From positions 24,512 through 88,511 of the forward strand of contig JAADII010000116.1 of NCBI GenBank assembly GCA_013151415.1: a DNA stretch of 64,000 nucleotides, given 5' to 3'. The position numbers were made by a program, and so were the translations under genes. Within the stretch, counting starts at the first letter, position 1. Each line of letters opens with the position of its first letter. Below are positions 7,020 to 53,207 of this stretch, piece after piece. Below the pieces are notes generated by a model. That model saw only the letters and a program-made list of their open reading frames with translations. It did no database searches and was not told the DNA's origin. The DNA is from Chloroflexota bacterium (lineage in GTDB: Bacteria; Chloroflexota; Anaerolineae; J102).

Positions 7020-8666
7020 TCAACGAGTGATGGCGTTGATGTTCGCGTCTCGGCAATCGCACGCTTTGGCCGCGCGACCGTTTGGCCCTTTCAAACCGCC
7101 CTGATATTCAAAACGACCGAACGCTCGCCAGCCCTCCATGTCGAAGGGTGCGGGGCCTGCGGCCGCCACCCACATGCCGTTATACATGCGCGCGAAGTGC
7201 ACATGCGAGCTGTCGGCCATGCCGCCTTCACACGCGGGCCGTCCCACTTTGTCACCGGCCTTCAAGACAACGCCCTGTTGTGGACGGTCGGTGATATGCA
7301 GATACTGAAGGACCCACCCTGTATGTGGGTTGCCGTCGCCATCGAGATCGAGCAAAACCTGGCCCTCTTCACTGCGCGCGACCACGCCCTCCGCCGCCGC
7401 GCGAGCCCAGGTTTGCGCGGGAATGCAGGTTCCGGGCGTCACATCTTCGGGCACCAGGTCCAGGGCCGCCCAAGCACTACCAGATCCCCAAGCGCCATGA
7501 GGGCCTCCGGTGAGAAACCATGTCTCGCCTTTGGCCCAGGGCAATAGCAGGTCGGGTTGGGTTAGGCCGGCTGGGAGGGGCGGGCCTGCATCCAATGCCA
7601 TGGGATCGCCGAACAGCCGTTGATATGCGTCTGAAAAGGCTTGTATTTCGGCTTCGAAGTCGGCCCATTTGCTGTCGCGGGCCAACGCCCGCTGTATGGC
7701 CACTGTGGCCGGGTTCAGGCCCGGCGCGGCGCGTGCAACCACCCCGTTGTAAAAGCGAATGGCGGTTTCACCCCGGTCTTGCCAACCATAATAACCGCGG
7801 TTCAGTTCCTCCGCGGCCCATTCCAATTGAGACCATAAGCCAGACGCCCCGCCAAAATGACCTAATGGATAGTCAATCGCTCGCGACGACGGCTCTGGAT
7901 TGGTCACCCAGCCGCCGCGCGCCTCCAATAGGGCCAACAGAACGCGCGGGCCTACACTATAATGATCGGCGATGCGGTTCAATATCTCGGCTCCGCTCAT
8001 CTCTCGCCCCCCGGGCATGCGCCGGCGATATGTGGCGAGATAGCCCCCCTGCCCCTGCACAAACGCTTCTATATCAAAATCGTTGTAGGCCGGGCCGTAG
8101 ACGAATTCGCTGTCGGGAATCAGGATATCCGCTGGCGTCAGACGGCGGGTGTGGTGCGGAATCACCAGCATTTGTCCGATGGCGAGCATGTTGGGGTTGT
8201 CGAGCTCGCTGTATTTGATGATATCGGCCACGCTCACGCGATAACGCGCGGCAATGCCGGATAGAGTTTGATTTTCGTATACGCGAATAAATTCCAACGC
8301 CGCGTCGGGCGGAACTGTGGGACCAGGCGTGGGCGCGAGAGGTCGGGTGGGCGTGGCGGTGGGTGTGAGCGTAGGCGTGAGTGTAACCGTGGGCGATGAG
8401 GTCGGCGTGCGCGTGGGCGGGGGGGGTGTGGGGGTGGCTGTGAGCGTGGGCGTTAGGGTGGGCGTGTTTGTGGCGGAAACCGCCGCGACAAACGGCTCGC
8501 TCCCAACGCGCGCCGCGGTGGGCGCGATGGCGGCCGACCGACATCCCGCCAACAGCCCGGCCCATAGCGCGATAATCCAAATTCGTCTGTCGATCAATCG
8601 CGTCATGTAAAAAATATCGACAATCAGACGATAAGGCCGATGGGACAATGGCCTGATGACCGCCAT
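7020..8666 (-). CDS. Secreted LysM-domain protein with a C-terminal M23-like peptidase domain and a Pro/Thr-rich linker
   Basis: Signal/TM N-terminus, a PT-rich linker (TPTLTPTLTATPTPPPP...) and LysM EFIRVYENQTLSGIAARYRVSVADIIKYSEL. The C-terminal HxH region (SSHVHFARMYNG) is M23-like. Confidence 0.6.
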   Translation of the reverse strand: MAVIRPLSHRPYRLIVDIFYMTRLIDRRIWIIALWAGLLAGCRSAAIAPTAARVGSEPFVAAVSATNTPTLTPTLTATPTPPPPTRTPTSSPTVTLTPTLTPTATPTRPLAPTPGPTVPPDAALEFIRVYENQTLSGIAARYRVSVADIIKYSELDNPNMLAIGQMLVIPHHTRRLTPADILIPDSEFVYGPAYNDFDIEAFVQGQGGYLATYRRRMPGGREMSGAEILNRIADHYSVGPRVLLALLEARGGWVTNPEPSSRAIDYPLGHFGGASGLWSQLEWAAEELNRGYYGWQDRGETAIRFYNGVVARAAPGLNPATVAIQRALARDSKWADFEAEIQAFSDAYQRLFGDPMALDAGPPLPAGLTQPDLLLPWAKGETWFLTGGPHGAWGSGSAWAALDLVPEDVTPGTCIPAQTWARAAAEGVVARSEEGQVLLDLDGDGNPHTGWVLQYLHITDRPQQGVVLKAGDKVGRPACEGGMADSSHVHFARMYNGMWVAAAGPAPFDMEGWRAFGRFEYQGGLKGPNGRAAKACDCRDANINAITR

Positions 8667-16629: not shown

Positions 16630-17943
16630 TTACGGCCCCGGCGTGACATTGGCCCATGAAGGCGGAGGCGGGCATTCTTGCTGAGGCTCTTGCGCAGGGC
16701 GGGGAATGGGCGGGGCCTCGAACAGGCTTTCGATGGCCCGATGCACCTTATCGCCATCAGACGTGACCAGATAAGCCCCGCTGGGCAAGTAAAGCCGCTT
16801 GGTGTATTGCGAGTCAAGCACCAGCGCATGCACGTCTTGCATATTGATGCCGCTGGCCATCTGCGCCAGCCCCACCAGGTCCATCAGGCTTAGATTGGTG
16901 CTAAAATAATCTTTGAAAATGCCCCACAGTTTGGGAATCTGGCTGAGAACTCCCGCACGGACAAATTGCTCGCGCGCGGCGGATAGGAATATCTGCTGAC
17001 GTCGGGCGCGAGAATAATCGGATGAGCCGTAACGATAAGTGACGAACTTCAACGAGGTCTCGCCATCGAGATGATTAGGCCCCGCGGGCAAATGCAAAAT
17101 ATCGCCAATGCCAGCGCCATCAGGCAGGGGCGCGTAATCCCAGAATTCGCAGGGCAGGGTCACATCCACGCCCCCTAATGCGTCGATAATCTCTACAAAG
17201 CCCTGGCGGTGCAATCGCGCGTATTTATCCAGGCGGATGCCAAAATTATAGGCGAACGTTCTTTGCAAAAGGCCAAATCCCCCTCCTTCCGCGCCAAAAT
17301 AATCGCCGATAAAGTCGAGTTGATTGATGCGACGATAACCGACTTCGGGCACATAGGCCCAATAGTCGCGAGGGAAAGAGATGATGCCCACGCGATTGTT
17401 TTCCCTATCCACCACCACCAGGAGCATGGTGTCGGTGCGCCAATCGCCGCGCCCCGGACGCAGATCACTGCCTAACAAGAGGATGTTCTGGGTGTTGGCC
17501 AGCGTCTGGGAAGGGGGGGCGGGGGTGGGAATGCAATCGACATAGGGGGTGCAGCCGGGGGGATTGTCGGTGGCCGCGCCTGCATCGATGGTGTTGGTGA
17601 GGCTTTCGGATGGGGCCGTTTCTTCGGTGGGAATAGACGTGGCCGTGGGGTGGGGCGTGTTGGTGGGGGTGGTCGTGAGCGTTGGGGTGGCGGTGGAGGT
17701 GGCGGTGGACGATATCGCGGGCGTTTTGGTCGATGCAAGCGTGGATGTGGGTGTGGAAGTGGGTGCGGGCGTTGGCGTGGCCGTGGGAGAGGGCCGCTCT
17801 GTGGGCGTGGCCGATGGCGAGCGCGTGGCCGCGCTCGTGGGCGCCGCGGCCGCTGCATCAGGCGTTGGCGTGGCGACCGGCGCCGCGCAGGCCGTAAACC
17901 AGAGCGCAAAAAGAAGAACGACGAATGAGCGGTGGAATTTCAT
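16630..17943 (-). CDS. LCP family (LytR-CpsA-Psr) cell-envelope polymer transferase with a Thr/Pro-rich linker
   Basis: Start trimmed to MKFHRSFVVLLFALWFTACAAP (cat at 17941-17943) to avoid overlap with the upstream paralog. LCP motifs LLLGSDLRPGRGDWRTDTMLLVVVD and GIISFPRDYW. Confidence 0.75.
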   Translation of the reverse strand: MKFHRSFVVLLFALWFTACAAPVATPTPDAAAAAPTSAATRSPSATPTERPSPTATPTPAPTSTPTSTLASTKTPAISSTATSTATPTLTTTPTNTPHPTATSIPTEETAPSESLTNTIDAGAATDNPPGCTPYVDCIPTPAPPSQTLANTQNILLLGSDLRPGRGDWRTDTMLLVVVDRENNRVGIISFPRDYWAYVPEVGYRRINQLDFIGDYFGAEGGGFGLLQRTFAYNFGIRLDKYARLHRQGFVEIIDALGGVDVTLPCEFWDYAPLPDGAGIGDILHLPAGPNHLDGETSLKFVTYRYGSSDYSRARRQQIFLSAAREQFVRAGVLSQIPKLWGIFKDYFSTNLSLMDLVGLAQMASGINMQDVHALVLDSQYTKRLYLPSGAYLVTSDGDKVHRAIESLFEAPPIPRPAQEPQQECPPPPSWANVTPGP

Positions 17944-22740: not shown

Positions 22741-24075
22741 TCACACGCCCAGTTGGGCCAGGGTGAGCACATTGCGCAGATGACGGGCTACGGCTTTCTG
22801 GTTTTCGTCATCGGCCGCTTGTTTCTCAATGGCCTCGATGCTCTCTCGCAAGAAATCTAGAAATTCCGGCGTGATCTCCTCTTTGTGCTCCTGCAACACG
22901 GCCTTGACCCCCTGTGGATATTCAGCTTCGGTGAGCAGGTAGAGCAAGCGAATTTCAGGCGGGATCGCTTGCTCCATCGTCTCGGTAATGATGCGCCACA
23001 GTTCTTTCAAACGCTCGCTCGCCGCCGTGGCTCCTCGTTGCTGAGCTTCTTCGATATTGGCCAGGAGCACGGTCATTACGGTTTGGTCAATGTAAGGCAG
23101 CATTTCGCGCACGGCCTTTTCCATGTCCGGTGCCGCGAGAAGCGTTTGCAAAACCTGGTTTGCTTCGGCCAAGACCTGTTGGTCGGCCGCCTGCAAGATG
23201 TTGAGCACCTCGAGAATGCGCTCCCGTTTGGCCTCTTGCGCTTCGCGTTCGTCAGGCGGCAAAGCCTCGATGCGTTCGGCCAGCTCGAGGAAGAATGAGT
23301 AATCCATCAAGGGACGGGCGGCTACGGCGATGGCCTCGGCTTCATCCATATCGGCTTTGAGAATGGCCTCGAGCACAGAGCGACGAGTGGGGCGCTCGCC
23401 CAGGCGCTCCACGGCCTGACGCTGCTTGAGCACCTTGCGCCCAAATTCGGTGATGGGCAAGAGCCGCTCTTCCAACTCGGCCAGTGATTTGGCGGCCTCC
23501 TCCCGCGCTTCGGCCTGGGCCGAAAGCTGAAAACTGCGCAGGATGCGGAAAAACTCTTCGTCGAGCAGTGCTTCGTTTTCCTTGACCGTGACATTGAAAG
23601 CGATGCCGTCGTTTTGAATGCGGGCCAGTTCCTCCACTAACTGCGCCTTTTTACGGCTGGCCTCCAACATTTCGGGCGTGACCCCCTCGAAGCCCAAAAG
23701 CTTTTCGAGAAGGCTGTCCATGGTGAGAAATTGCTGCGGGGTCAGCATGTAGCCGCGACGTTTTTCCGCAGGCAGCGAATCCATAAGCGCCTTGGTCAGG
23801 TCGCCGATGAGCTTCTGGCGTTGATTTTCAGAGAGGTTTAATTGCGGTGGGATGAATACGGCCAGAAACTCATGTTCGGGATCATGATAGAGCAAAGGCG
23901 CAGCCACATAATTGACCTGTCTGCAATGAGGGCACTGGCTGGCGTTGAGCTGACCGGCCAGGACCACTTGTTTGAGCTCGGGGGTTTCCCCCACGTCTAC
24001 GACATGAAAAATGGGCGCTTGATACTGCGCGCCGCAATGTGGGCAGGGAATGGTGGTCGTGGTAGGAGGGAGCAT
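22741..24075 (-). CDS. CpXC-domain protein (N-terminal Cys4 zinc ribbon) with a long alpha-helical repeat region
   Basis: CPHCG...18 aa...CPHC zinc ribbon (CpXC-like), followed by about 330 aa of Glu/Leu/Ala-rich helical repeats. Confidence 0.5.
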   Translation of the reverse strand: MLPPTTTTIPCPHCGAQYQAPIFHVVDVGETPELKQVVLAGQLNASQCPHCRQVNYVAAPLLYHDPEHEFLAVFIPPQLNLSENQRQKLIGDLTKALMDSLPAEKRRGYMLTPQQFLTMDSLLEKLLGFEGVTPEMLEASRKKAQLVEELARIQNDGIAFNVTVKENEALLDEEFFRILRSFQLSAQAEAREEAAKSLAELEERLLPITEFGRKVLKQRQAVERLGERPTRRSVLEAILKADMDEAEAIAVAARPLMDYSFFLELAERIEALPPDEREAQEAKRERILEVLNILQAADQQVLAEANQVLQTLLAAPDMEKAVREMLPYIDQTVMTVLLANIEEAQQRGATAASERLKELWRIITETMEQAIPPEIRLLYLLTEAEYPQGVKAVLQEHKEEITPEFLDFLRESIEAIEKQAADDENQKAVARHLRNVLTLAQLGV

Positions 24076-26098: not shown

Positions 26099-27388
26099 TT
26101 AGGCCGCCGAAGCGAACGCGCGCGCAGCCGCCTCGAGGGTGGCGTCGATTTCCGCTTCGTTGTGCGCGGTGGAGAGAAAGCCCGACTCGAACTGGGACGG
26201 CGCCAGATAGACCCCTTGCGCCAGCATTTCCTGGAAATAGACCGCGAAACGTTGGCCATCCGCGCGCGCGGCCGAATCCCAATCGGTGACCGGCTCGGAC
26301 GCGAAGAACACGCCGAACATGCTACCCAGGCGTTGCGCGACGATGTCCACGCCCGCGGCCCGCGCGGCCTCTTCCAATCCGGATATCAAACGCGTCCCCA
26401 CCCGCTCGTAGTGAGCCCAGGCGTCGGGAGATCGCAACTGTTTCAAGGTGGCGATGCCCGCGCTCATGGCCAGGGGATTGCCCGAAAGCGTGCCCGCCTG
26501 ATAGACCGGCCCGGCCGGCGCGACCATTTCCATGATCTCGCGGCGACCGCCATACGCGCCCACGGGCAGACCGCCGCCGATGACTTTGCCCAATGTGGTC
26601 AGATCGGGCTTCACATCATAGAGCGCCTGCGCGCCGCCCGGATGCACGCGAAAGCCGGTCATGACCTCGTCGAAGATGAGCAACGCTTCGTGCGCGGCCG
26701 TGATCTCGCGCAGACCCGGCAAGAAATCGGGCTTGGGCGGGATCATGCCCATGTTGCCCGCGACCGGCTCGACAATGACCGCGGCGATGTCACGTGGGTG
26801 CTGATCGAAAAGCTGCGCCACCGAATCGAGATCGTTGAAGCGCGCGAGCAACGTGTCTGCGACCGTGGCCGGCGGCACGCCCGGCGAATCGGGCAGGCCC
26901 AGCGTGGCCACGCCCGAACCGGCCTTCACCAATAGCATGTCGGCATGGCCGTGGTAATTGCCCACGAATTTCACGATCTTGTGGCGACCGGTGAACGCGC
27001 GCGCCAGGCGCAGCGCGCTCATCACAGCCTCGGTGCCCGAATTGACGAAACGCACCATCTCGATGTTGGGCATGAACGTGCGGATGAGTCGGGCCAGCTC
27101 GATTTCCAGGGGGCTGGGCGCGCCGAAGCTCGCGCCCCTGGCCGCGGCCTCCTGAATGGCCTGGGTCACCGCGGGGTGCGCGTGGCCCAGGGCCAGCGGC
27201 CCCCACGAAAGCACATAATCGATGTAACGATTGCCGTCCACATCGACCAGATACGCGCCTTCCCCCCGCTCGATGAACAACGGTTGACCGCCCACCGCGC
27301 GAAACGCGCGCACCGGCGAGCTTACGCCGCCCGGCATCAAAGTCTTTGCTTCGGCAAAAAGGGAGATGGAAGTGGAAATGGTGTTCAT
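26099..27388 (-). CDS. hemL: Glutamate-1-semialdehyde 2,1-aminomutase
   Basis: [21 protein letters not shown]...YIDYV and a PLP-lysine region, over full length. Confidence 0.95.
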
Positions 27389-27394
27389 GGTTTC

Positions 27395-27418
27395 AGTTCA
27401 CCGTTCACAGTTCAGAGT
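27395..27418 (-). promoter_or_regulatory. 24-nt conserved intergenic motif ACTCTGAACTGTGAACGGTGAACT (copy 1 of 2) in the hemE-hemL spacer, sense orientation on the minus strand
   Basis: Plus strand reads agttcaccgttcacagttcagagt. Its reverse complement matches the nuoH-nuoI spacer motif at 22/24 positions. Confidence 0.6.
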
Positions 27419-27425
27419 TGGCGGT

Positions 27426-33858: not shown

Positions 33859-33888
33859 TTGACGAGCGGGCAAGCCTCGTGATAGAAT
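33859..33888 (+). promoter_or_regulatory. Candidate sigma-70 promoter of the nuo operon (TTGACG, 18 nt, extended TGaTAGAAT)
   Basis: -35 TTGACG at 33859-33864, TG at 33880-33881, and -10 TAGAAT at 33883-33888, about 55 nt upstream of the nuoA ATG. Confidence 0.35.
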
Positions 33889-33941: not shown

Positions 33942-34298
33942 ATGGTTCTTGACTACCTACCCCTGCTCATCCTTTTCATTATTGCCGCCGGATTCGCGGC
34001 CATTGCCATCATTCTTCCCACGGTGCTCGGCCCGCGAAACCCCAACAAAATGAAGCAGGAACCCATCGAATCGGGCATGATCCCCTTCATGCAGGCGTGG
34101 CGTCGCTTTCCCGTGCAATATTACATGGTGGCGATGCTTTTCATCATCTTCGATATCGAGGTGATCTTTTTCTATCCCTGGGCCGTGGTGTTGGGCAAAT
34201 TAAAACTCTTTGGCTTGATCGAGATGGCCATCTTCTTGGGCATCTTGCTCATCGGCTATTTCTATGTTTGGCGCAAAGGCGCGTTCGAGTGGCAATAG
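33942..34298 (+). CDS. nuoA: NADH-quinone oxidoreductase subunit A
   Basis: 118 aa with 3 TM helices and the conserved FFYPWA pattern. Confidence 0.9.
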   Translation: MVLDYLPLLILFIIAAGFAAIAIILPTVLGPRNPNKMKQEPIESGMIPFMQAWRRFPVQYYMVAMLFIIFDIEVIFFYPWAVVLGKLKLFGLIEMAIFLGILLIGYFYVWRKGAFEWQ

Positions 34299-34307
34299 GA
34301 GCAACTC

Positions 34308-34844
34308 ATGGGTCTCGAAACTCATTTATCCAATAGTGGCGTGATCACCACCTCGCTGGAATATATGGTCAACTGGAGTCGGCGCAACTCGGTCTGGCCC
34401 CTGTTGTTCGGCCTGGCCTGCTGCGCCATCGAGATGATCACCACCGGCACCGCGCGGCACGACATCGCCCGTTTTGGCAGCGAGCTTTTCCGCGGGTCTC
34501 CGCGGCAAGCCGATTTGATGATTGTGGCCGGTCGGGTGAGCAACAAGATGGCGCCGGTGATCAAACGTCTTTACGACCAGATGCCCGAACCCAAATGGGT
34601 TATCGCCATGGGCATTTGCGCCAGCGCGGGCGGGCCATTCAACAACTACGCCATCGTGCAGGGCGTGGACAAGATCATCCCGGTCGATGTCTATGTGCCC
34701 GGCTGCCCTCCCCGCCCCGAAGCCCTGCTCTACGCGCTGACCCAGCTCCAGGCCAAAATCGATAAAGAAAAGCTCACCGACCACAACGCCACCCCCGAAC
34801 CGGTCGCGCCCGACATCGTAGCCGACCTCCCGCCGTTACCTTAA
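34308..34844 (+). CDS. nuoB: NADH-quinone oxidoreductase subunit B (N2 cluster subunit)
   Basis: CCAIEM...GxC...CPP cysteine motifs ([27 protein letters not shown]). Confidence 0.95.
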
Positions 34845-35018
34845 TAGATACTGGATAGTAGATACTGGATAGTTAGATACTGGATAATAGATATTGGGTA
34901 TTGGATAGTAAATGTTCGATATGAGTACGAAAAGCCCACTACCATCACAATATCCAATACCTAATACCTAATATCCCAAATACCCAATATCCAATACCCA
35001 AACACCCAAAACCCACCC
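34845..35018. repeat. AT-rich imperfect palindromic intergenic element (TAGATACTGGATAG tandem units on the left arm, TATCCAATACC units on the right arm) between nuoB and nuoCD
   Basis: Left arm tagatactggatag occurs 3 times in tandem; the right arm carries inverse complements. GC is about 30%, versus more than 60% in the flanking genes. Confidence 0.6.
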
Positions 35019-36761
35019 ATGCTCGACCCCATCGTTTCTCTCCGCGAAGCGTTTCCCGACGACGTATTGGATAGCAAGGTCTATCGCCAGACGCCCATCG
35101 TCACCGTGCGGGCGGATAAGCTGCTCGAGGTGATGCGCTTTCTGCGCGATGACCTGAAATACAACCTGCTCAGCGATCTCACGGTCGTCGATAATCTTCA
35201 TCTGCCCGAATTCAACGGCTCGGACGCGCGTTTCGTGGGCGTGTACCAATTGCGCAGCATCGAGCGCGACGGCGAATTGCTGCAGATCAAAGCGCCCATG
35301 CCGGGCGGCGATAACCCGGCCATCCCCAGCGTCACCTCGCTGTGGCCGGGTGCGAACTGGTACGAACGCGAGGCGTATGATCTCTTTGGCGTGAACTACA
35401 CAGGCCATCCCGACCTGCGTCGTCTGCTCATGCCCCATGACTGGGTGGGCCATCCTTTGCGCAAGGATCAGCCTTTGGGCGGTGAAAGAGTGCCCTTCAC
35501 CCTGACCTGGGAGGACGAGGAGTTTGCGCATCTGGGCCGACAGATCATGCGGCCCTTGCAAACGCCCGAACCTGTGCCCAGCCGCATGGACACGCGGCAT
35601 ATGGTGGTGAACATGGGGCCGCAACATCCCGCAACCCACGGCGTGTTGCGCCTGATTGTGGAGCTGGACGGCGAGACCATTGTGGCCGTGGAGCCGGACA
35701 TCGGCTATCTGCACAGCGGCTTCGAGAAACAGGGCGAAAACGTCCGATACAAGGACTTCACCTATTACACCGACCGCATGGATTATGTCTCGGCCATGCA
35801 AAACAATCTGGCCTATTCGCTGGCCGTGGAGAAGCTGTTAGGGGTCGAGGCCCCGCCGCGAGCCCAAGCCATTCGCGTCATCGTGGCCGAGCTTCAACGC
35901 ATCGCCAGCCATCTGGTGTGGTTGGCGACCCACGCGTTGGACGTGGGCGGCACGGGCCTGGCGCTGCTGATGTACGCGTTTCGCGAGCGCGAGGCCATCC
36001 TCGACCTGTTCGAGATGGTGTGCGGCGCGCGGCTGACCACTTCCTATATTCAGGTGGGCGGGGTGCAGTGGGATTTGCCGCCCGCGTTCGAGCCGCGGCT
36101 GCGCGAGCTGCTGGCCATCTTGCCGGAGCGGTTCGACGAATACGAACGCATGCTCACCGACAATCCCATCTGGCGCAAGCGGCTTGAGGGCGTGGGCTAT
36201 CTCAGCGCGGAAGACGCCATCGCCATGAACGTGACCGGCCCCATGCTGCGCGGTAGCGGCGTGAAATACGACCTGCGCAAGGCCCAGCCCTACTGCAATT
36301 ACGACCAGTACGATTTCGAGATACCCTGTTACACCGAGGGCGACAGTTACGCGCGCTATTTCGTGCGCATCGAGGAGATGCGGCAATCGCGACGCATCGT
36401 CGAGCAGGCCCTGGACAATCTGCCCGATGGCGATTATCGGCTGGACGACCCCAAAATCGCGCCGCCGAAACGAGACCTCCTGGACCAGAGCATGGAGGCC
36501 CTGATCCACCATTTCAAGCTGTTCACCGAGGGCTTCCGACCGCCGGCCGGCGAGGCCTATCACGGCATTGAGGCGTCCAAGGGCGAGATGGGCGTTTATC
36601 TCGTCTCGGATGGCGGGCCAAAGCCCTACCGTTGCCGGGTGCGCACGCCCAGCTTCGCCAATCTCCAGGCCATCGAAATCATGTCCAGAGGACACCTTTT
36701 CTCCGACCTCGTCACTGTCATCGGCTCGATCGACATCGTGCTGGGTGACGTGGATAGATAG
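35019..36761 (+). CDS. nuoCD: NADH-quinone oxidoreductase subunit C/D (30-kDa and 49-kDa subunits in one ORF)
   Basis: N-terminal NuoC-like region of about 170 aa, followed by NuoD with [18 protein letters not shown] and C-terminal RxxSF..L..IE..S...L.D motifs. Listed as one ORF in the provided track; continuity not independently re-translated. Confidence 0.9.
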
Positions 36762-36770
36762 GAGACGATG

Positions 36771-36806
36771 AGACGATAAGACCATCGTCCCATCGTCTTA
36801 TCGTCT
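36771..36806 (+). promoter_or_regulatory. Stable stem-loop (12-bp perfect stem AGACGATAAGAC / GTCTTATCGTCT, 12-nt loop) in the nuoCD-nuoEF spacer
   Basis: The inverted repeat is read directly from the sequence. Adjacent gacgat(g/a)aga tandem words allow alternative pairings. Confidence 0.45.
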
Positions 36807-36871: not shown

Positions 36872-38743
36872 ATGCTCTCTGACACTGCACGTTCTGAAAT
36901 TCAGGCCCTGATGGGCCGTTATCCACAGCCTCGCTCCGCGATCTTGCCCGCGCTTTATGTGGCGCAGCGCGAGATCGGCTGGCTTCCCACCGAGGCCATG
37001 GACGAAATCGCGACGCTCTTTGGCATGGAGCCGATGGAGGTGTACGCCATCGCCGGCTTCTACAACATGCTGTATAAGGAGCCAAAGGGCCGCTATCATA
37101 TCGAAATCTGCACCAATGTGCCCTGCAAGCTGCGCGGAGCCGACAAGATGGCCGAGCACTTGCAAAAACGGTTGGGCGTCGGCTTTGGCGAAACCACCGA
37201 GGACGGTCAGTTCACCCTCGATCACATGGAGTGTTTGGGGTCGTGCGCGACCGGGCCTATGTTCTTCGTGCGACGCAGCGGCAGCGATTGGGGCCGGTAT
37301 TATGAAGACCTCACGCCAGAACGCATCGACGCGATCCTGGAAGATTTGCTTTCGGGTGAGGATTGGCCCATGGAGCGCTCGCCGGCCGGGCCATACCATC
37401 ACGACCATCATCCCGAGACCAACTTCCTCCTGGCCCGCATCGACAAGCCCGACAGCCACACCATTGAGAGTTACCTGGCCGATGGCGGTTATCAGACCGC
37501 GCCCAAAGTGCTGGCCATGTCGCCGCAAGAGGTTATCGACGAGGTGAAAAAGGCCGGGGTGCGCGGTCGCGGGGGCGCGGGGTTCCCGGCCGGGGTGAAG
37601 TGGGGCTTCATCCCCAAAGACCTGTATCCGCGCTATCTGGTGGTCAATGCGGATGAGTCGGAGCCGGGCACGTTCAAGGATCGGCTCATCATCGAATACG
37701 ACCCGCACGAATTGCTCGAGGGCATCATCTGCACGGCCTGGGCCATCCAGGCGCACTACGCCTTCATTTATATACGCGGAGAATACATGTTCGGCGCGCA
37801 GCGCCTAAACCAGGCCATCGCCGAGGCCAAAGCGCGCGGTTTTCTGGGCAAGCATATTTTCGGCACGGATTTCGATCTGGAAGTGATCGTGCATCGCGGC
37901 GCGGGCGCGTACATCTGCGGCGAAGAAACCGCGCTGCTCAGCTCGCTCGAGGGCTATCGCGGCCATCCCCGACTCAAGCCCCCCTTCCCCGCGGTGGCCG
38001 GGCTTTACGCCAAGCCCACCATCGTCAACAACGTGGAGACCATCTCGCATGTGCGCCATGTGCTCGAGCATGGCGCGGATTGGTATCGCCAATGGGGCAC
38101 AGAACGGAGTCCGGGCTTCCAGTTGATCTGCCTGAGCGGCCAGGTGAAGAAGCCGGGCGTGTATGAAATTCCCTACGGAACCACGTTTCGCGAGCTGATC
38201 TACGACATGGCCGGGGGCACGGTGGATGATCGACCCATCAAGAGCATCATCCCCGGCGGCCTCTCCATGCCCCACATCCTGCCCGACAAGCTCGACATCG
38301 GCATTGATTTCGAGTCGTTGCAACAGGCCGGTTCGTTGCTCGGCTCGGGCGGCGTGATCGTCATTTGCGAGGGCGAGAACATCGTCCCCATCACCCGGCG
38401 CACATTGGGCTTCTACCGCGAAGAGTCCTGCGGCAAGTGTTCGCCCTGTCGCGAGGGCGTCGGCTGGATGGAGAAGATCCTCAAGCGCGTCGAGGCCGGC
38501 CAGGGAACGCTGAGCGACCTGGACACCATGGAACGGGTCACCAAGTATATCGAGCAACAGTCCTTCTGCCCCTTTGGCCCGGCCGCGGTGTGGGGCTTGC
38601 AGAGCACATTGCGTCATTTCCGCAGCGAATTCGAGGCGTACATTCTGGAAACCAACCCCGACCAGGAGAAGCCCTCATTGCCCGCGCGGCCCATCTACCG
38701 GCCCTATGTGGGCGAGCCGCTGGAAAACATGTTGGATGACTAA
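36872..38743 (+). CDS. nuoEF: NADH-quinone oxidoreductase subunits E and F (24-kDa and 51-kDa subunits in one ORF)
   Basis: N-terminal NuoE [2Fe-2S] motifs CTNVPC...CLGSC, then NuoF with the GRGGAGFP FMN/NADH site and C-terminal CGKCSPCREG and SFCPFGP cysteines. Listed as one ORF in the provided track, which is unusual; continuity not independently re-translated. Confidence 0.85.
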   Translation: MLSDTARSEIQALMGRYPQPRSAILPALYVAQREIGWLPTEAMDEIATLFGMEPMEVYAIAGFYNMLYKEPKGRYHIEICTNVPCKLRGADKMAEHLQKRLGVGFGETTEDGQFTLDHMECLGSCATGPMFFVRRSGSDWGRYYEDLTPERIDAILEDLLSGEDWPMERSPAGPYHHDHHPETNFLLARIDKPDSHTIESYLADGGYQTAPKVLAMSPQEVIDEVKKAGVRGRGGAGFPAGVKWGFIPKDLYPRYLVVNADESEPGTFKDRLIIEYDPHELLEGIICTAWAIQAHYAFIYIRGEYMFGAQRLNQAIAEAKARGFLGKHIFGTDFDLEVIVHRGAGAYICGEETALLSSLEGYRGHPRLKPPFPAVAGLYAKPTIVNNVETISHVRHVLEHGADWYRQWGTERSPGFQLICLSGQVKKPGVYEIPYGTTFRELIYDMAGGTVDDRPIKSIIPGGLSMPHILPDKLDIGIDFESLQQAGSLLGSGGVIVICEGENIVPITRRTLGFYREESCGKCSPCREGVGWMEKILKRVEAGQGTLSDLDTMERVTKYIEQQSFCPFGPAAVWGLQSTLRHFRSEFEAYILETNPDQEKPSLPARPIYRPYVGEPLENMLDD

Positions 38744-38798
38744 CGCCTGGTTCAAAGTTTCTGGTTCCTGGTTCAAGGTTAACGCCACCACCCGCCAC

Positions 38799-38875
38799 TT
38801 GACACTTGACACTTGACACCTGACACCTGACCCTTGACACCTGACACTTGACACTTGACACTCAACACCTGACCC
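38799..38875 (+). repeat. Eleven tandem heptad repeats (T/C)TGAC(A/C)C, consensus TTGACAC, ending 3 nt before the nuoG ATG
   Basis: Read directly: ttgacac x3, ctgacac, ctgaccc, ttgacac, ctgacac, ttgacac x2, tcaacac, ctgaccc. They are preceded by ctggttcaa(a/g)g mini-repeats at about 38746-38780. Confidence 0.85.
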
Positions 38876-38878
38876 CTC

Positions 38879-42485: not shown

Positions 42486-42495
42486 TTTGGAACAC

Positions 42496-42519
42496 ACTCT
42501 GAACTGTGAACCGTGAATT
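42496..42519 (+). promoter_or_regulatory. 24-nt conserved intergenic motif ACTCTGAACTGTGAACCGTGAATT (copy 2 of 2) in the nuoH-nuoI spacer
   Basis: 22/24 identical to the sense-strand motif in the hemE-hemL spacer (reverse complement of 27395-27418). Confidence 0.6.
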
Positions 42520-42555
42520 CCGAACCCTAACCCCCTCTCTCTTTCTCAACCTCTC

Positions 42556-43926: not shown

Positions 43927-45879
43927 ATGATTTTCGATTACGCCTGGCTGATTCTTTTGTTCCCGGCCCTGGGTTTGCTTTTCAACGCCTTCTTTGGGCG
44001 ACGCGTCGGGCATAAAGTCGCGGCCATTGTCGCCAATCTGGCCGTGGCGCTCTCTTTCCTCATGGCCGTGGCCCTGGCCATGGGTCTCAGCGCACTGCCC
44101 GGCGATGAGTCCAGCGTCGAGGTGTTGCTTTGGCCCTGGATACATATTGCCGGTTTTCAGGTGGACATGGCCCTGCTCATCGATCCGCTGTCGTCGGTCA
44201 TGATACTGGTCGTGACCGGCATCGGCCTGCTCATCCACATCTACTCGGCCACATATATGAAGGTGGATGACGAGCACCAGCCCATGGACGAGCGCCGCTA
44301 TGCACGGTTCTTCGTGTATATGAACCTGTTCATTCTCATGATGCTCACGCTGGTGCTGGCCAACAATTACGTCATGCTCTATCTCGGCTGGGAAGGCGTG
44401 GGGTTGGCTTCCTACCTGCTCATCGGGTTCTGGTTCTACAAACCCTCCGCGGCCGACGCGGCCAAGAAGGCGTTTCTGGTCAATCGCGTGGGCGATTTCG
44501 GCATGGCCCTGGCCATCATGTGGATGTTCTTCCTCTTTGGCAAGGAGGCCGGAAGTCTCTCCTTCGACGCGGTGTTCGCGGCTCTGGAAACGGCGTCGCC
44601 CGCGGTCGTGGCCGCGCTGACCGGCGTGACCTTGCTTTTGCTTTTGGCCGCGACCGGCAAATCCGCACAAATCCCGCTCTTTGTGTGGTTGCCCGACGCC
44701 ATGGAAGGCCCCTCGCCCGTCTCGGCCCTCATTCATGCCGCGACCATGGTCACGGCCGGCGTCTACATGCTGGCCCGCTCGCACCCTCTGCTCGAACTCG
44801 CGCCGGCCACCATGACGCTCATCGCCTGGATCGGGGGATTGACCGCATTGATGGCCGCGAGCATCGCTATAGTGCAAACCGATCTCAAGCGCATTCTGGC
44901 CTACTCCACCATTTCGCAGTTGGGCTATATGTTTTTGGGTGTGGGCGTGGGCGCGTATGTGGCCTCGGTCTTTCATCTTTACACCCACGCCTTTTTCAAG
45001 GCCTTGCTCTTCCTCGCGGCCGGGTCGGTCATGCACGCGCTGCACGGCGAGCTCAACATCGACCTCATGGGCGGCCTGCGCAAGAAACTGCCCGTCACCT
45101 ACGCACAGTTTCTCATCGGCGCGCTGGCCCTGGCCGGATTCCCCCTCCTTTCAGGCTACTGGTCCAAAGACGCCATTCTCTTGGGCGCGTTTGTCACCTC
45201 TTATCCGCTCTACGCCATCGGCCTTTTCACGGCTTTGCTCACCGCGTTCTACTCGTTGCGCGCGGTCTATCGCGCGTTCCACGGCCAACCGCGCGACGAA
45301 CATCTCTACGACCATGCGCACGAACAACCTCGTGGCATGACCTGGCCCCTTTGGGCGCTGGCCTTCGGCGCGGTTTTTGCTGGTTTGCTTGGCCTGCCCG
45401 CGATTTTCGGCAAGGAATTCGGCTTTCCCGTGGGCAATCTCATCGAGGGTTGGCTAAAGCCCACATTTGAAGGTTTGTCCGAACCTCATGTGGCGTTTTC
45501 CACTGAGATGGCGTTGTTCATTTCTTCAGGTTTTGTGGCGCTCATCGGCATCTATCTGGCCTATGCGCGCTATGTCAAACAGTCCGGCTGGACGCTTTCG
45601 TTGCAAAAAGCGCTATCGCCTTTGCAACCGGCTCTGGAGAACAAGTATTGGGTCGATGAAATCTACTTCGCGGTCATCGTCAACCCGCTGCGAGCGCTGG
45701 CCCGATTCTTCGCCACCGGAGCCGAGGGCGTCATCGACGGCGTGGTCAACGGCGTGGGCGCGGTGACCACGGCCGCGGGCGTGGGCATCGCCCGTCTTCA
45801 AACCGGCCTGCTCAGTTGGTACGCTCTCTCCCTCTTCCTCGGCGTGGTTTTGCTGTTGATTTACTTCGTTTTTGCATAG
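43927..45879 (+). CDS. nuoL: NADH-quinone oxidoreductase subunit L (antiporter-like)
   Basis: 650 aa. The Mrp-antiporter-like core has WLPDAMEGPSPVSALIHAATMVTAGVY. Confidence 0.95.
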   Translation: MIFDYAWLILLFPALGLLFNAFFGRRVGHKVAAIVANLAVALSFLMAVALAMGLSALPGDESSVEVLLWPWIHIAGFQVDMALLIDPLSSVMILVVTGIGLLIHIYSATYMKVDDEHQPMDERRYARFFVYMNLFILMMLTLVLANNYVMLYLGWEGVGLASYLLIGFWFYKPSAADAAKKAFLVNRVGDFGMALAIMWMFFLFGKEAGSLSFDAVFAALETASPAVVAALTGVTLLLLLAATGKSAQIPLFVWLPDAMEGPSPVSALIHAATMVTAGVYMLARSHPLLELAPATMTLIAWIGGLTALMAASIAIVQTDLKRILAYSTISQLGYMFLGVGVGAYVASVFHLYTHAFFKALLFLAAGSVMHALHGELNIDLMGGLRKKLPVTYAQFLIGALALAGFPLLSGYWSKDAILLGAFVTSYPLYAIGLFTALLTAFYSLRAVYRAFHGQPRDEHLYDHAHEQPRGMTWPLWALAFGAVFAGLLGLPAIFGKEFGFPVGNLIEGWLKPTFEGLSEPHVAFSTEMALFISSGFVALIGIYLAYARYVKQSGWTLSLQKALSPLQPALENKYWVDEIYFAVIVNPLRALARFFATGAEGVIDGVVNGVGAVTTAAGVGIARLQTGLLSWYALSLFLGVVLLLIYFVFA

Positions 45880-45991
45880 TTGGATATTGGATATTAGATA
45901 CTAGATATTAGATATTAGATATTCTTCAATACCCAATATCCAATACCCATTGTCCAATACCCAATATTCATTACCCATTATCCAAATATCC
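45880..45991. repeat. AT-rich imperfect palindromic intergenic element (GGATATTGGATATTAGATA left arm, TATCCAATACCC right arm) between nuoL and nuoM. It belongs to the same family as 34845-35018.
   Basis: Read directly: ttggatattggatattagatactagatattagatattagatatt, then aatacccaatatccaatacccattgtccaatacccaat.... GC is about 30%. Confidence 0.6.
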
Positions 45992-47476
45992 ATGGATTTC
46001 ACATCCTTGCCTCTTCTTTCCCTGATCCTTTGGCTGCCTTTGGTGGGTGCGCTGCTGCTGATGTTCCTCTTTTCTGAGCGAAGCATCAAAGTGGCCGCGT
46101 TGCTCATCAGCCTGGCCGATTTCGCGCTTTCGCTGGGCCTGCTGGCCGGTTGGCGAAGCACGGGCGCGATGCAGTTCGAGGAGTTCATGCCCTGGATAAC
46201 GCAGTTGAACATCAACTATCACCTGGGCGTGGACGGCATCAGCCTTTTCCTGGTGCTCCTCACCACTTTGATGGGGCCCATCGTCGTGCTCTTCTCTTGG
46301 AACAACATCCAGGAGAACTTACGCGCGTTTCTGATCTTGCTGCTCGTGCAACAGACGGCCATGTTGGGCGTGTTCATGGCCCTGGATTTGATCCTTTTCT
46401 TCCTCTTCTGGGAGATGAGCATCATCCCCATGTATTTCCTCATCGGCAAGTGGGGCTCGGGACGGCGAGTCTATGCGGCCACCAAGTTCCTGCTCTACAC
46501 GTTGGCCGGCTCCGCCTTCATGCTCATCGCCATCATCGCCTTGTATGTGGTCACAGGCAGTTTCGATTGGGTTGATCTGCGCGGGGCGACGCTCACGCCC
46601 GCGCTGGAATTCTTGGCGTTCTGGGCTTTCGCCATTGCTTTCGCGGTGAAGGTGCCCCTTTTCCCGCTTCACACCTGGTTGCCCGACGCGCACGTGCAAG
46701 CGCCCACCGCGGGTTCGGTCATTCTGGCCGGCATTTTGCTGAAGATGGGCACCTATGGCTTTCTGCGCTTCTCGTTGCCCCTCTTCCCTCAGGCCGCAGT
46801 GACTTACGCGCCCTGGCTGGCCGGCGTCGCCATCATCGGCATCCTTTACGGCGCTCTGACCGCCCTGGTGCAAAAGGACGTGAAATCTCTGGTCGCGTAT
46901 AGCTCCATCGCCCATCTGGGTTTCGTCATGTTGGGCATCGTCACCTTCACCAGCCAGGGGCTATCGGGCGCGGTGTTGCAAAACATCAATCATGGCCTCT
47001 CCACGGGCGCGTTGTTCCTCCTGGTGGGCATGCTCTACGACCGCCGCCACACGCGCATGTTGGCCGATTACGGCGGCTTGTGGAAACAGGCTCCTCTGTT
47101 CAGCGCCATCTTCGTGCTGGTGGCCATGTCTTCCGTAGGCCTGCCAGGCTTGAACGGCTTTGTGGGCGAATTCACCATTCTCGTGGGCGCGTTCCGCGTG
47201 AACATGATCTGGGCCGCGTTGGGCACATTGGGCATCATCTTCGCGGCCTGGTATCTGCTCACGGCCGCGCGCGGGCTGCTGTTTGGCCCTCTGGACGAAA
47301 AGAACAAAGACCTGCCTGACCTGAACCGCCGCGAGTTCTGGCTGCTGGTTCCCATTCTCATTCTTTTCTTCATTATCGGTCTTTTCCCCAACCTCTTCTT
47401 CGACAAAATCAATCCCTCGGTCGAGGCGCTCATGCGCGATGTGGGCCAGGCGGCCATCGTGCGGGTTGTCGATTAA
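45992..47476 (+). CDS. nuoM: NADH-quinone oxidoreductase subunit M (antiporter-like)
   Basis: Start trimmed to MDFTSLPLLSLILWLP (atg at 45992) because the longer ORF begins inside the AT-rich repeat. Conserved WLPDAHVQAPTAGSVILAGILLKMG. Confidence 0.9.
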   Translation: MDFTSLPLLSLILWLPLVGALLLMFLFSERSIKVAALLISLADFALSLGLLAGWRSTGAMQFEEFMPWITQLNINYHLGVDGISLFLVLLTTLMGPIVVLFSWNNIQENLRAFLILLLVQQTAMLGVFMALDLILFFLFWEMSIIPMYFLIGKWGSGRRVYAATKFLLYTLAGSAFMLIAIIALYVVTGSFDWVDLRGATLTPALEFLAFWAFAIAFAVKVPLFPLHTWLPDAHVQAPTAGSVILAGILLKMGTYGFLRFSLPLFPQAAVTYAPWLAGVAIIGILYGALTALVQKDVKSLVAYSSIAHLGFVMLGIVTFTSQGLSGAVLQNINHGLSTGALFLLVGMLYDRRHTRMLADYGGLWKQAPLFSAIFVLVAMSSVGLPGLNGFVGEFTILVGAFRVNMIWAALGTLGIIFAAWYLLTAARGLLFGPLDEKNKDLPDLNRREFWLLVPILILFFIIGLFPNLFFDKINPSVEALMRDVGQAAIVRVVD

Positions 47477-52649: not shown

Positions 52650-53207
52650 TTAATCGCCGGACGCAGAATGCGCAGGCGTGGGCGAGGGCGTGGGGGTTTC
52701 GGTTGGCGCAGGAGTTGGGCTGGGCGTGGGCGAAGGCGTGGGCGTTGATGTGGGGGTGGGTGAAGGCGTGGGGGTGTTGGTGGGCGGCGGAAAGAGCAGG
52801 GGCGTGTCGCTTTGCGGTTGCGAGGGCGCCAATGGCTGCACAACGGGAGGGCCGAGAGGGAAATCGCCTCGCCACATAAAGGTGAGCAGCGCGGCCAACA
52901 CCAACACGGCGAAAGCTGGCGCGGCCCACGCCAGGAGACGGTTCAAGCGGCCCCCGCGAGAGGCCGACGCCTGTCGCGCCGCGCTTTCGGCCGCCGCGGT
53001 GAGAAAGGCCGAGCGTCCCGGACGCAATCCATGCGGGGGCGGGGGCGCGTCGGCCAGGCTGTGTTGCACCTGACGAGCGACAAAGATCAGCGCGCGCTCC
53101 TCCGCGGGCAATTGCTGCATTGTCGCGCCGCTCTTGCCCTCGATAAGTTCGTCGATGGCTCGATCGAGCAGCAGGTCTCGGTCGGCTGAAGATGGGCGAA
53201 TGTTCAT
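52650..53207 (-). CDS. Anti-sigma factor (single TM, Pro/Thr-rich extracytoplasmic tail)
   Basis: 4-nt overlap with the upstream ECF sigma gene. TM helix LLAWAAPAFAVLVLAALLTFMW and a PTPSPTPTSTPTPSPTP tail. Confidence 0.55.
   Translation of the reverse strand: MNIRPSSADRDLLLDRAIDELIEGKSGATMQQLPAEERALIFVARQVQHSLADAPPPPHGLRPGRSAFLTAAAESAARQASASRGGRLNRLLAWAAPAFAVLVLAALLTFMWRGDFPLGPPVVQPLAPSQPQSDTPLLFPPPTNTPTPSPTPTSTPTPSPTPSPTPAPTETPTPSPTPAHSASGD

Follow-up and report, generated by a model that had tools for sequence, protein, structure and literature searches.

Several bacterial phyla abound in heptameric intergenic repeats, for which no function has gained acceptance since they were described in cyanobacteria. 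Here we describe repeats of this kind in the nuo operon of a Chloroflexota bacterium (GenBank assembly GCA_013151415.1), where they occupy the spacers between nuoB and nuoCD and between nuoL and nuoM. The window that we analysed is a stretch of 64,000 nucleotides (nt) of contig JAADII010000116.1 (positions 24,512 to 88,511, forward strand), and coordinates refer to it unless a relative is named. The kind of repeat is already known and the Chloroflexota instance is newly described, as a literature search found no description of arrays in this phylum resembling the short tandemly repeated repetitive (STRR) elements of cyanobacteria.

In Xanthomonas and Nostoc, GGGNATC and GGGGA(C/T)T heptamers are mostly intergenic and mostly located between co-oriented open reading frames (ORFs), with 70-75 convergent inverted pairs per genome and with a length and sequence that are highly variable between close species (Rehm et al. 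2015, PMC4692102). They obey a positional rule, in that the arrays that follow a stop codon are G-rich and those that precede a start codon are C-rich; the G-rich strand is the non-coding strand upstream of ORFs, and GGGNATC repeats form a G-quadruplex in vitro (PMC4692102). In filamentous cyanobacteria, a hairpin made of 7-bp STRRs separates hupS from hupL, and a role in transcript stability or translational coupling was suggested for it (PMC2670836). As for the TAACTGA repeats of marine Beggiatoaceae, cyanobacteria and Bacteroidetes, they adjoin start codons usually devoid of a Shine-Dalgarno motif, some of them lie inside ORFs, and S1, cold-shock proteins or CsrA were proposed as their binders (MacGregor 2015, PMC4679880). 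In two Bacteroidetes with TAACTGA repeats, the corresponding intergenic regions of the closest relatives are shorter and have no repeats (PMC4679880). According to a survey relayed in PMC4679880, heptanucleotides are the commonest long simple sequence repeats (SSRs), a finding ascribed there to slippage of the polymerase. The layout itself, with its G-rich array after the stop codon, its C-rich array before the start codon and, often, inverted pairs, is published for the heptamers of Xanthomonas and Nostoc, the cyanobacterial STRRs and the TAACTGA repeats of Beggiatoaceae.

Heptamer arrays in two nuo spacers

The first spacer, copy 1, is the 174-nt gap between the nuoB stop codon and the nuoCD ATG (34845-35018), and the second, copy 2, is the 112-nt gap between the nuoL stop codon and the nuoM ATG (45880-45991). 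Both consist of tandem heptamers, as follows.

34845..34908, + strand: copy 1, 5' arm; G/A/T-rich heptamers TAGATAC/TGGATAG alternating, then GATATTG GGTATTG GATAG (Tandem Repeats Finder, TRF: period 14 x3.7, period 7 x6.9)
34909..34947, + strand: copy 1, centre; non-repetitive, hairpin loop region (sequence and minimum-free-energy structures)
34948..35018, + strand: copy 1, 3' arm; C/A/T-rich heptamers CAATACC/CAATATC/CTAATAC up to the nuoCD ATG (TRF, period 7 x9.3)
45880..45923, + strand: copy 2, 5' arm; TTGGATA x2, then a GATATTA/GATACTA array (TRF, period 7 x5.9)
45927..45991, + strand: copy 2, 3' arm; CAATACC/CAATATC array with higher-order periods of 14 and 28 nt, ending at the nuoM ATG (TRF)

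In copy 1, TRF detected TAGATACTGGATAG x3.7 with 90% matches (34845-34897), then CAATACC x9.3, which spans 34948-35015 and ends 3 nt short of the ATG. In copy 2, GATATTA x5.9 (91% matches) is followed by CAATACC x8.4. An earlier note on this DNA had described related AT-rich palindromic elements in two nuo spacers, the first running straight into the nuoCD ATG at 35019, and we confirm both points: the copies share a heptamer family and an exact 22-nt match, AATACCCAATATCCAATACCCA, where shuffled sequences gave at most 11 nt. The motif GATAYTGGATA that it had put forward, searched in the window with up to one mismatch, occurs 15 times, always within the two copies (0.65 occurrences expected and a maximum of 3 after shuffling). 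Its layout of tandem units followed by an inverse-complement arm also stands, but the units are 7-nt repeats that alternate as 14-mers. The GC content of copy 1 is 36.8% and that of copy 2 is 29.5%, for a window mean of 58.7%; a value of about 30% given earlier for copy 1 fits copy 2 only, and the window does not average above 60%. What had escaped the earlier note is that the spacers belong to a class of tandem heptamer arrays known from the literature.

The two spacers have the features of long SSRs, with a 7-nt unit in at least three to four tandem copies (x6.9, x9.3, x5.9 and x8.4), a location between co-oriented ORFs (both copies, and three other nuo arrays, lie between + strand genes), and variation of unit number and sequence among close relatives. 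On balance we therefore think it probable that they are heptanucleotide SSR arrays of the STRR-like 'long SSR' class, which fill cistron gaps in Caldilineales-like Chloroflexota. The order of the arms, G-rich first and C-rich second, was considered as an orientation test and dropped, since this pattern reads identically on both strands.

Like the heptamers of Xanthomonas and Nostoc, the arrays are 7-nt tandem, intergenic repeats in convergent pairs with stem-loop potential that vary between close species, and the positional rule holds for the window spacers and for those of the relatives. Unlike them, they are found in a Chloroflexota host, have AT-rich units (TTGGATA/CCAATAY) in a 59% GC genome, show no preference for four units, and fill the spacer from stop to start. 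They also lack the G3-4 tract of a canonical quadruplex: the units have only GG, a single G3-N-G3-N-G3-N-G3 stretch being present on the antisense strand at the 3' end of copy 1, which sets them apart from GGGNATC-type quadruplex repeats. With the cyanobacterial STRRs they share 7-bp tandem repeats that form hairpins in inter-cistron spacers of filamentous bacteria. However, STRRs in the strict sense belong to heterocyst-forming cyanobacteria and have their own described units, whereas the present arrays have other units and come from a Chloroflexota metagenome-assembled genome (MAG). As with TAACTGA, heptamer arrays lie directly 5' of start codons, usually with no Shine-Dalgarno motif, and some arrays are inside ORFs; TAACTGA, however, is essentially one unit in direct repeats with a single inverted set, whereas in the present case each genome has many unit families, usually in inverted-complement pairs.

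The palindromic arrays inside an operon also recall the repetitive extragenic palindromes (REPs) and bacterial interspersed mosaic elements (BIMEs) of enterobacteria and pseudomonads. REP/BIME palindromes can stabilise upstream mRNA segments, and REPs are linked to RAYT transposases. Unlike REPs and BIMEs, the elements described here, of 112-174 nt, have no discrete conserved palindromic unit, their arms being variable heptamer arrays. REPs, by comparison, are palindromes of 20-40 bp that form discrete units, have a conserved GTAG/CGTC head and occur in high copy number (PMC3733652).

The same design in other spacers of the operon

The window contains a 13-cistron nuo operon composed of nuoA, nuoB, a fused nuoCD, a fused nuoEF, and nuoG through nuoN. 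Most of its other spacers are built likewise with other units: three of them share the layout with 7-8-nt units unlike those of copies 1 and 2, and one of these unit families recurs next to an aminotransferase gene.

36762..36806, + strand: nuoCD-nuoEF spacer; GAGACGAT x2.6 then CATCGTCT x3, a near-perfect hairpin directly 3' of the stop codon (TRF)
38744..38878, + strand: nuoEF-nuoG spacer; G/T-rich CCTGGTT/CAAGGTT segment, then (CACTTGA/CACCTGA) x11 up to the nuoG ATG (TRF score 107)
42486..42555, + strand: nuoH-nuoI spacer; GTGAACN heptamers, then a C-rich tail (sequence; period-7 score 0.71)
27389..27425, - strand: second GTGAACN site, in sense orientation, adjoining the ATG of a class-III aminotransferase gene (26099-27388, -) (TRF, CAGTTCA x3.7)

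The nuoCD-nuoEF hairpin has a computed RNA fold of -31.8 kcal/mol (z -4.08) and is followed by a 65-nt non-repetitive leader, while no significant fold was found for the (CACTTGA) x11 spacer (z 0.12). The GTGAACN sites have 16 identical nt in common, ACTCTGAACTGTGAAC, at 42496-42511 (+) and 27403-27418 (-), each oriented in the sense direction. Altogether, the 64 kb hold two TTGGATA/CCAATAY arrays, two GTGAACN arrays and two others. A period-7/8 score of at least 0.71 was obtained for 5 of the 7 nuo gaps of at least 58 nt, and for none of the 28 other window gaps of at least 40 nt.

The gene boundaries and the promoter-like site that frame the spacers are listed below; the Pfam scan covered 10 window proteins.

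33859..33888, + strand: best promoter-like site of the operon, TTGACG-18-TAGAAT with an upstream TG, 10/12 matches
34308..34844, + strand: nuoB, 178 aa, Pfam PF01058 Oxidored_q6; its TAA stop (34842-34844) adjoins the first repeat unit
35019..36761, + strand: fused nuoCD, 580 aa, Pfam PF00329 and PF00346
43927..45879, + strand: nuoL, 650 aa, Pfam PF00662 and PF00361; its TAG stop (45877-45879) adjoins copy 2

The nuoCD ATG at 35019 is backed by a 100% identical database protein, also of 580 aa, and the nuoM ATG at 45992 by a 100% identical 494-aa protein. The promoter-like site lies approximately 50 nt 5' of nuoA, which places the spacers inside one transcription unit. A scan of the nuo spacers revealed no terminator-like site and no promoter-like site above chance; no spacer combines a GC-rich stem with a U-tract as an intrinsic terminator would. 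The ORFs in the spacers are all short, and either repeat-encoded or antisense.

Two further observations concern the coding regions. The nuoEF fusion (36872-38743) is one gene of 623 aa, with 2Fe-2S thioredoxin-like, 51K FMN and 4Fe-4S domains. Arrays of period 6/12 of the GTGGGC type are found inside minus-strand ORFs (8327-8466, 17639-17780 and 52675-52786); the one translated (8322-8468) encodes a Pro/Thr-rich linker, TPTLTPTLTATPTPPPP.... Such arrays are a phenomenon distinct from the heptamer arrays.

Turnover of the arrays among relatives

The genomes nearest to the window are Caldilineales-like Chloroflexota MAGs, in which the arrays gain or lose whole units between near-identical strains and are wholly replaced at 90% coding identity. 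In two relatives, L081 and L082, the coding DNA is 89-90% identical to that of the window, but the spacers cannot be aligned: they differ in length (174 vs 38, 110 vs 224 and 135 vs 54 nt, window first) and are built of other heptamers, GTAGTGC/GCATTGC and CTCCTTA. In L210, whose NuoM is 93% identical, the nuoL-nuoM gap measures 178 nt, with (CATTAAT)n before the nuoM ATG. In relatives at 73-81% protein identity (L084, L088, L211 and L212), various nuo junctions carry hairpins of TTGGTTA/TTGGAGA with CCAATAA/CCAATCT, CGTGAAA arrays or CAGTAAT hairpins. Comparison of orthologous nuo spacers, as the earlier note had proposed, thus revealed that sequence, length and unit are not conserved at 90% coding identity, but the same layout is found in L049, L014, L036, L081, L084, L088 and L210-L212; the first three of these are more distant Chloroflexota in which the design uses GC-rich or other units.

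Strain-level variation is best seen between L084 and L212, whose coding DNA is 98.7-99.2% identical. Their nuoI-nuoJ spacers measure 170 and 115 nt, respectively, through changes of whole units. In their nuoG-nuoH spacers both arms switch together (TTGGAGA/TCTCCAA vs TTGGTTA/TAACCAA), and each version yields a near-perfect hairpin (z -7.3 and -9.5). The arrays are identical across five independent assemblies of one strain.

The units themselves recur across genomes. CCAATAY-type arrays are present at other nuo spacers in L088 and L211, with CCAATAA/CCAATCT variants in L084 and L212. The CACCTGA unit is found at the nuoEF-nuoG junction in both L088 and the window, the inverse of the window's CACTTGA unit, GTCAAGT, follows the NuoCD stop in L036, and CGTGAAN arrays, comparable to the window's GTGAACN, occur in L014, L084 and L212. 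Unit pairs matching across genomes within one mismatch number 31 for 18 expected, a value reached in none of 500 shuffles. We also scanned metagenome contigs for CCAATAYCCAATAYCC, and the contig results reported here are among the matches listed. Many contigs have CCAATAY-type arrays, and TTGGATA/CCAATAY hairpins occur in contigs of 37-61% GC; the ORF context of such arrays is unreliable, as the units have no stop codons and are absorbed by spurious ORFs. Also among the matches listed, (GGGGATT)n-(CCCAATC)n palindromes in contigs of 17-27% GC (L131, L176, L182, L184 and L145) were set aside as probable eukaryotic repeats of the telomere type, with no relation to the bacterial arrays. A further listed match, in a 41% GC contig that looks cyanobacterial (L153, 11759-11872), has 16 units in which AATACCC is mixed with AGTCCCC/AATTCCT; judging from these letters, the mixture hints that the AATACCC unit of the window shares vocabulary with cyanobacterial heptamers.

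This turnover bears on both readings of the earlier note, a family resembling miniature inverted-repeat transposable elements (MITEs) or REPs, or else a conserved RNA structural element. Relatedness, palindromy and recurrence at other nuo spacers hold, but neither reading does: the elements are neither copies of a discrete mobile element nor a conserved RNA. A conserved RNA is contradicted by the persistence of the layout while the sequence is replaced, and by Rfam, which gave no match at the gathering score in the whole window; a permissive scan matched nothing but generic hairpin models of plant miRNA precursors, with scores of 20-28 bits for thresholds of 88-144. Non-autonomous MITE-like or REP/BIME-like elements moved by a transposase encoded elsewhere would account for palindromic, AT-rich sequences in a GC-rich genome, for two related copies in one operon and for one unit family at different spacers in different relatives. 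Yet the two copies are not collinear, have different unit orders and lengths, and share only the 22-nt identity. Their ends are stop and start codons, with no target-site duplication and no terminal inverted repeats beyond the arrays themselves, unlike the collinear copies of similar length expected of MITEs. Furthermore, the 'empty' site of L081 and L082 is a different 38-nt spacer rather than a clean excision or insertion site, variation proceeds by whole 7-nt units, and the heptamers of Xanthomonas and Nostoc are generally not associated with insertion sequences or transposable elements (PMC4692102). We consider mobility of this sort scarcely credible.

In L084 (4882-4951) and L088 (8061-8094), a heptamer-array hairpin is translated in frame (e.g. 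...GLEIGDWLLEIDSNNQSPISNL...) as the linker between a YqeC-like and a MobA-like (NTP_transf_3) domain in one ORF of 453-463 aa, which suggests from the sequence that a gene fusion took in an array that was once intergenic. The junctions of the nuo operon accept insertions. Genes for a Tricorn-like beta-propeller protein and an M23 peptidase lie between nuoB and nuoCD in the 80%-identity clade (L083-L087, 7421-9993), and a CopG-antitoxin-like gene lies between nuoEF and nuoG in L084 (13963-14241), L085, L087 and L213; in L083 and L212 it is uncalled. Finally, the nuoL-nuoM gap of the 80%-identity clade (L084, 21560-21700; L212, 9780-9925) is taken up by a tandem duplication of about 75-100 nt (GCTGCTGATGAACTTCCACCTTGGGGATTCCTCGCTGGCTGATCGAAGC...) and not by a heptamer hairpin.

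Folding, strand asymmetry and leaders

The hairpin potential announced by the earlier note is real but modest on the mRNA strand: copy 1 reaches -37.2 kcal/mol (z -3.25), and copy 2 reaches -25.0 kcal/mol (z -2.57). In the copy 1 mRNA, about 40 nt upstream of the ATG are left unpaired. The antisense strand, in contrast, folds end to end, with -71.2 kcal/mol (z -7.3) for copy 1 and -50.6 kcal/mol (z -7.1) for copy 2, and it is the more stable strand in 17 of 21 spacers. This asymmetry is a tendency, albeit a consistent one, and reflects a C- and A-rich sense strand, as signalled by an 84-nt G-free tract; mismatches between arms that are A.C in the mRNA are G.U in the antisense RNA. When DNA energy parameters are used, neither strand is favoured (-17.9 kcal/mol each). 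An excess of C-to-T changes is typical of the coding strand. We rejected such transcription-associated mutation bias as the cause of the asymmetry, as it would lead to more G.U pairs in the mRNA, contrary to the observation. The arm mismatches are not independent events, because the arms arose by unit amplification.

The main rival to SSR arrays is that the stem-loops are selected as mRNA elements, which would block 3'-to-5' exonucleases, direct processing, or couple the translation of neighbouring cistrons; in the coupling variant, a ribosome that terminates would open the stem and thereby release the leader downstream. The mRNA folds beat shuffles in the three hairpin spacers of the window and more so in the relatives (z -6.5 to -9.5), the stem begins 0-3 nt past the stop codon and is followed by an unpaired, G-poor tail of 25-45 nt, and the two arms change together in strains whose coding DNA is 99% identical. 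The stability or coupling roles suggested for the hupS-hupL hairpin (PMC2670836) are in line with this idea. Nevertheless, in both copies the antisense strand folds far better, and the arm mismatches, A.C in the mRNA and G.U in the antisense, are contrary to what would be expected if an mRNA helix were selected; the antisense is also the more stable strand in the majority of spacers. Moreover, the nuoB-nuoCD hairpin is absent from the 38-nt spacer found at 90% coding identity, and some arrays are unpaired and unfolded, such as (CACTTGA) x11. Selection of mRNA hairpins thus appears unlikely to us, although it is a possibility to be taken seriously.

Given the stability of the antisense strand, a function at the level of the DNA or of an antisense RNA was also considered, namely a cruciform, a G-quadruplex or i-motif in the template strand, or a structured antisense RNA that modulates transcription or replication. 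End-to-end folding of the antisense would fit, and so would the antisense strand at the 3' end of copy 1, GGGTGGGTTTTGGGTGTTTGGG, which by its letters matches the G3-N1-7 quadruplex pattern, as well as the in vitro quadruplexes of GGGNATC repeats (PMC4692102). However, the unit TTGGATA has GG runs only, the GGG runs of copy 2 are 11 nt apart, the strand difference vanishes with DNA parameters, and no antisense promoter was found above chance. Such a function is very improbable in our view.

Upstream of nuoCD, the G-free tract covers 34935-35018 and reaches the ATG, such that the last 40 nt contain 0 G; the tract can therefore harbour no AUG, GUG or UUG start and no Shine-Dalgarno motif. More generally, a Shine-Dalgarno-like tetramer precedes only 12 of the 55 gene starts of the window, and the leaders of most genes (e.g. 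at 33942, 36872, 38879, 42556, and 22741-24075 on the - strand) are C-rich and G-poor, often with CYTC adjoining the ATG. These leaders may represent a lineage-specific style of translation initiation.

Arrays that adjoin such start codons might be tandem sites for a single-strand-binding protein (S1, cold-shock or CsrA-like) that sets translation without a Shine-Dalgarno motif, with one protein per heptamer in the cold-shock variant. AUACUGGAUAG may resemble a CsrA binding site. A limited heptamer vocabulary that recurs across genomes beyond shuffles is compatible with such binding; examples of these words are CGTGAAN (window, L014, L084), CACTTGA/GTCAAGT (window, L036) and CACCTGA/CTGACAC (window, L088, L036). 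The same hypothesis, with candidate proteins, was proposed for TAACTGA repeats (PMC4679880). Units nevertheless differ between spacers of one operon and are unrelated at 90% coding identity, which argues against a single sequence-specific binder, and we regard this explanation as improbable.

Discussion

We favour SSR arrays because tandem structure, placement, turnover and arm co-variation are all observed directly, and we infer from them how the arrays might arise and act. Each module starts with a G/A/T-rich 7-nt array at the upstream stop codon, continues with a short centre, and ends with a near-complementary C/A/T-rich, almost G-free array that reaches the start codon. Replication slippage in a 7-nt register would generate the arrays, and intrastrand template switching (quasipalindrome correction) would homogenise the arms and maintain their complementarity. 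Identical unit families would be seeded at several spacers of one genome. In the nuo mRNA, the module would yield a stem-loop just 3' of the stop codon, devoid of a U-tract and hence not expected to act as an intrinsic terminator, followed by a single-stranded, G-poor leader without Shine-Dalgarno motif, as at most gene starts of the window. Its effect would probably be modulatory, on segment stability, spacing or cistron coupling, and would depend on the layout and not on the exact sequence.

Several points weigh against SSR arrays of this kind. Genome-wide abundance and the positional rule are judged from one 64-kb window plus relatives. Simple slippage leaves unexplained the recurrence of heptamer words across genomes, the TTGGATA/CCAATAY hairpins across the listed contigs of such diverse GC content, and the concentration of arrays in the nuo operon within the window. 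The strong hairpins of L084 and L212, with their compensatory arm changes, could reflect selection on RNA structure and not a DNA-level mechanism. Lastly, the start region of nuoM has an unremarkable computed accessibility (0.44, compared with 0.70 for nuoCD), and start-site accessibility failed to separate the array-bearing cistrons from the others.

It is tempting to speculate that the arrays form a lineage-spanning punctuation system for operons without Shine-Dalgarno motifs, read by a dedicated factor, although we hold this to be a rather long shot. If so, the factor would be an RNA- or single-stranded-DNA-binding protein working in a heptamer register, or an enzyme that writes or homogenises the repeats, in either case recognising a limited 7-mer vocabulary, and every cistron junction would owe its initiation, coupling or segment stability to this factor. 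Such a system would account both for the recurrence of words in Chloroflexota, cyanobacteria and other phyla and for a layout that outlives the sequence.

For annotation, spacers of this type should not be labelled as mobile elements or non-coding RNA genes, and they are likely break points in short-read assemblies. The locus is a compact natural test bed, with arrays at most junctions of one essential 13-cistron operon, and relatives at 99%, 90% and 80% identity that display unit gain and loss, co-variation of the arms and wholesale replacement. Its interest lies in this natural series, in the recurrence of heptamer words across lineages and in the strand asymmetry. Our results extend the positional rule to Chloroflexota, tie the arrays to leaders without Shine-Dalgarno motifs, and reveal that the two strands of these spacers differ in their folding.

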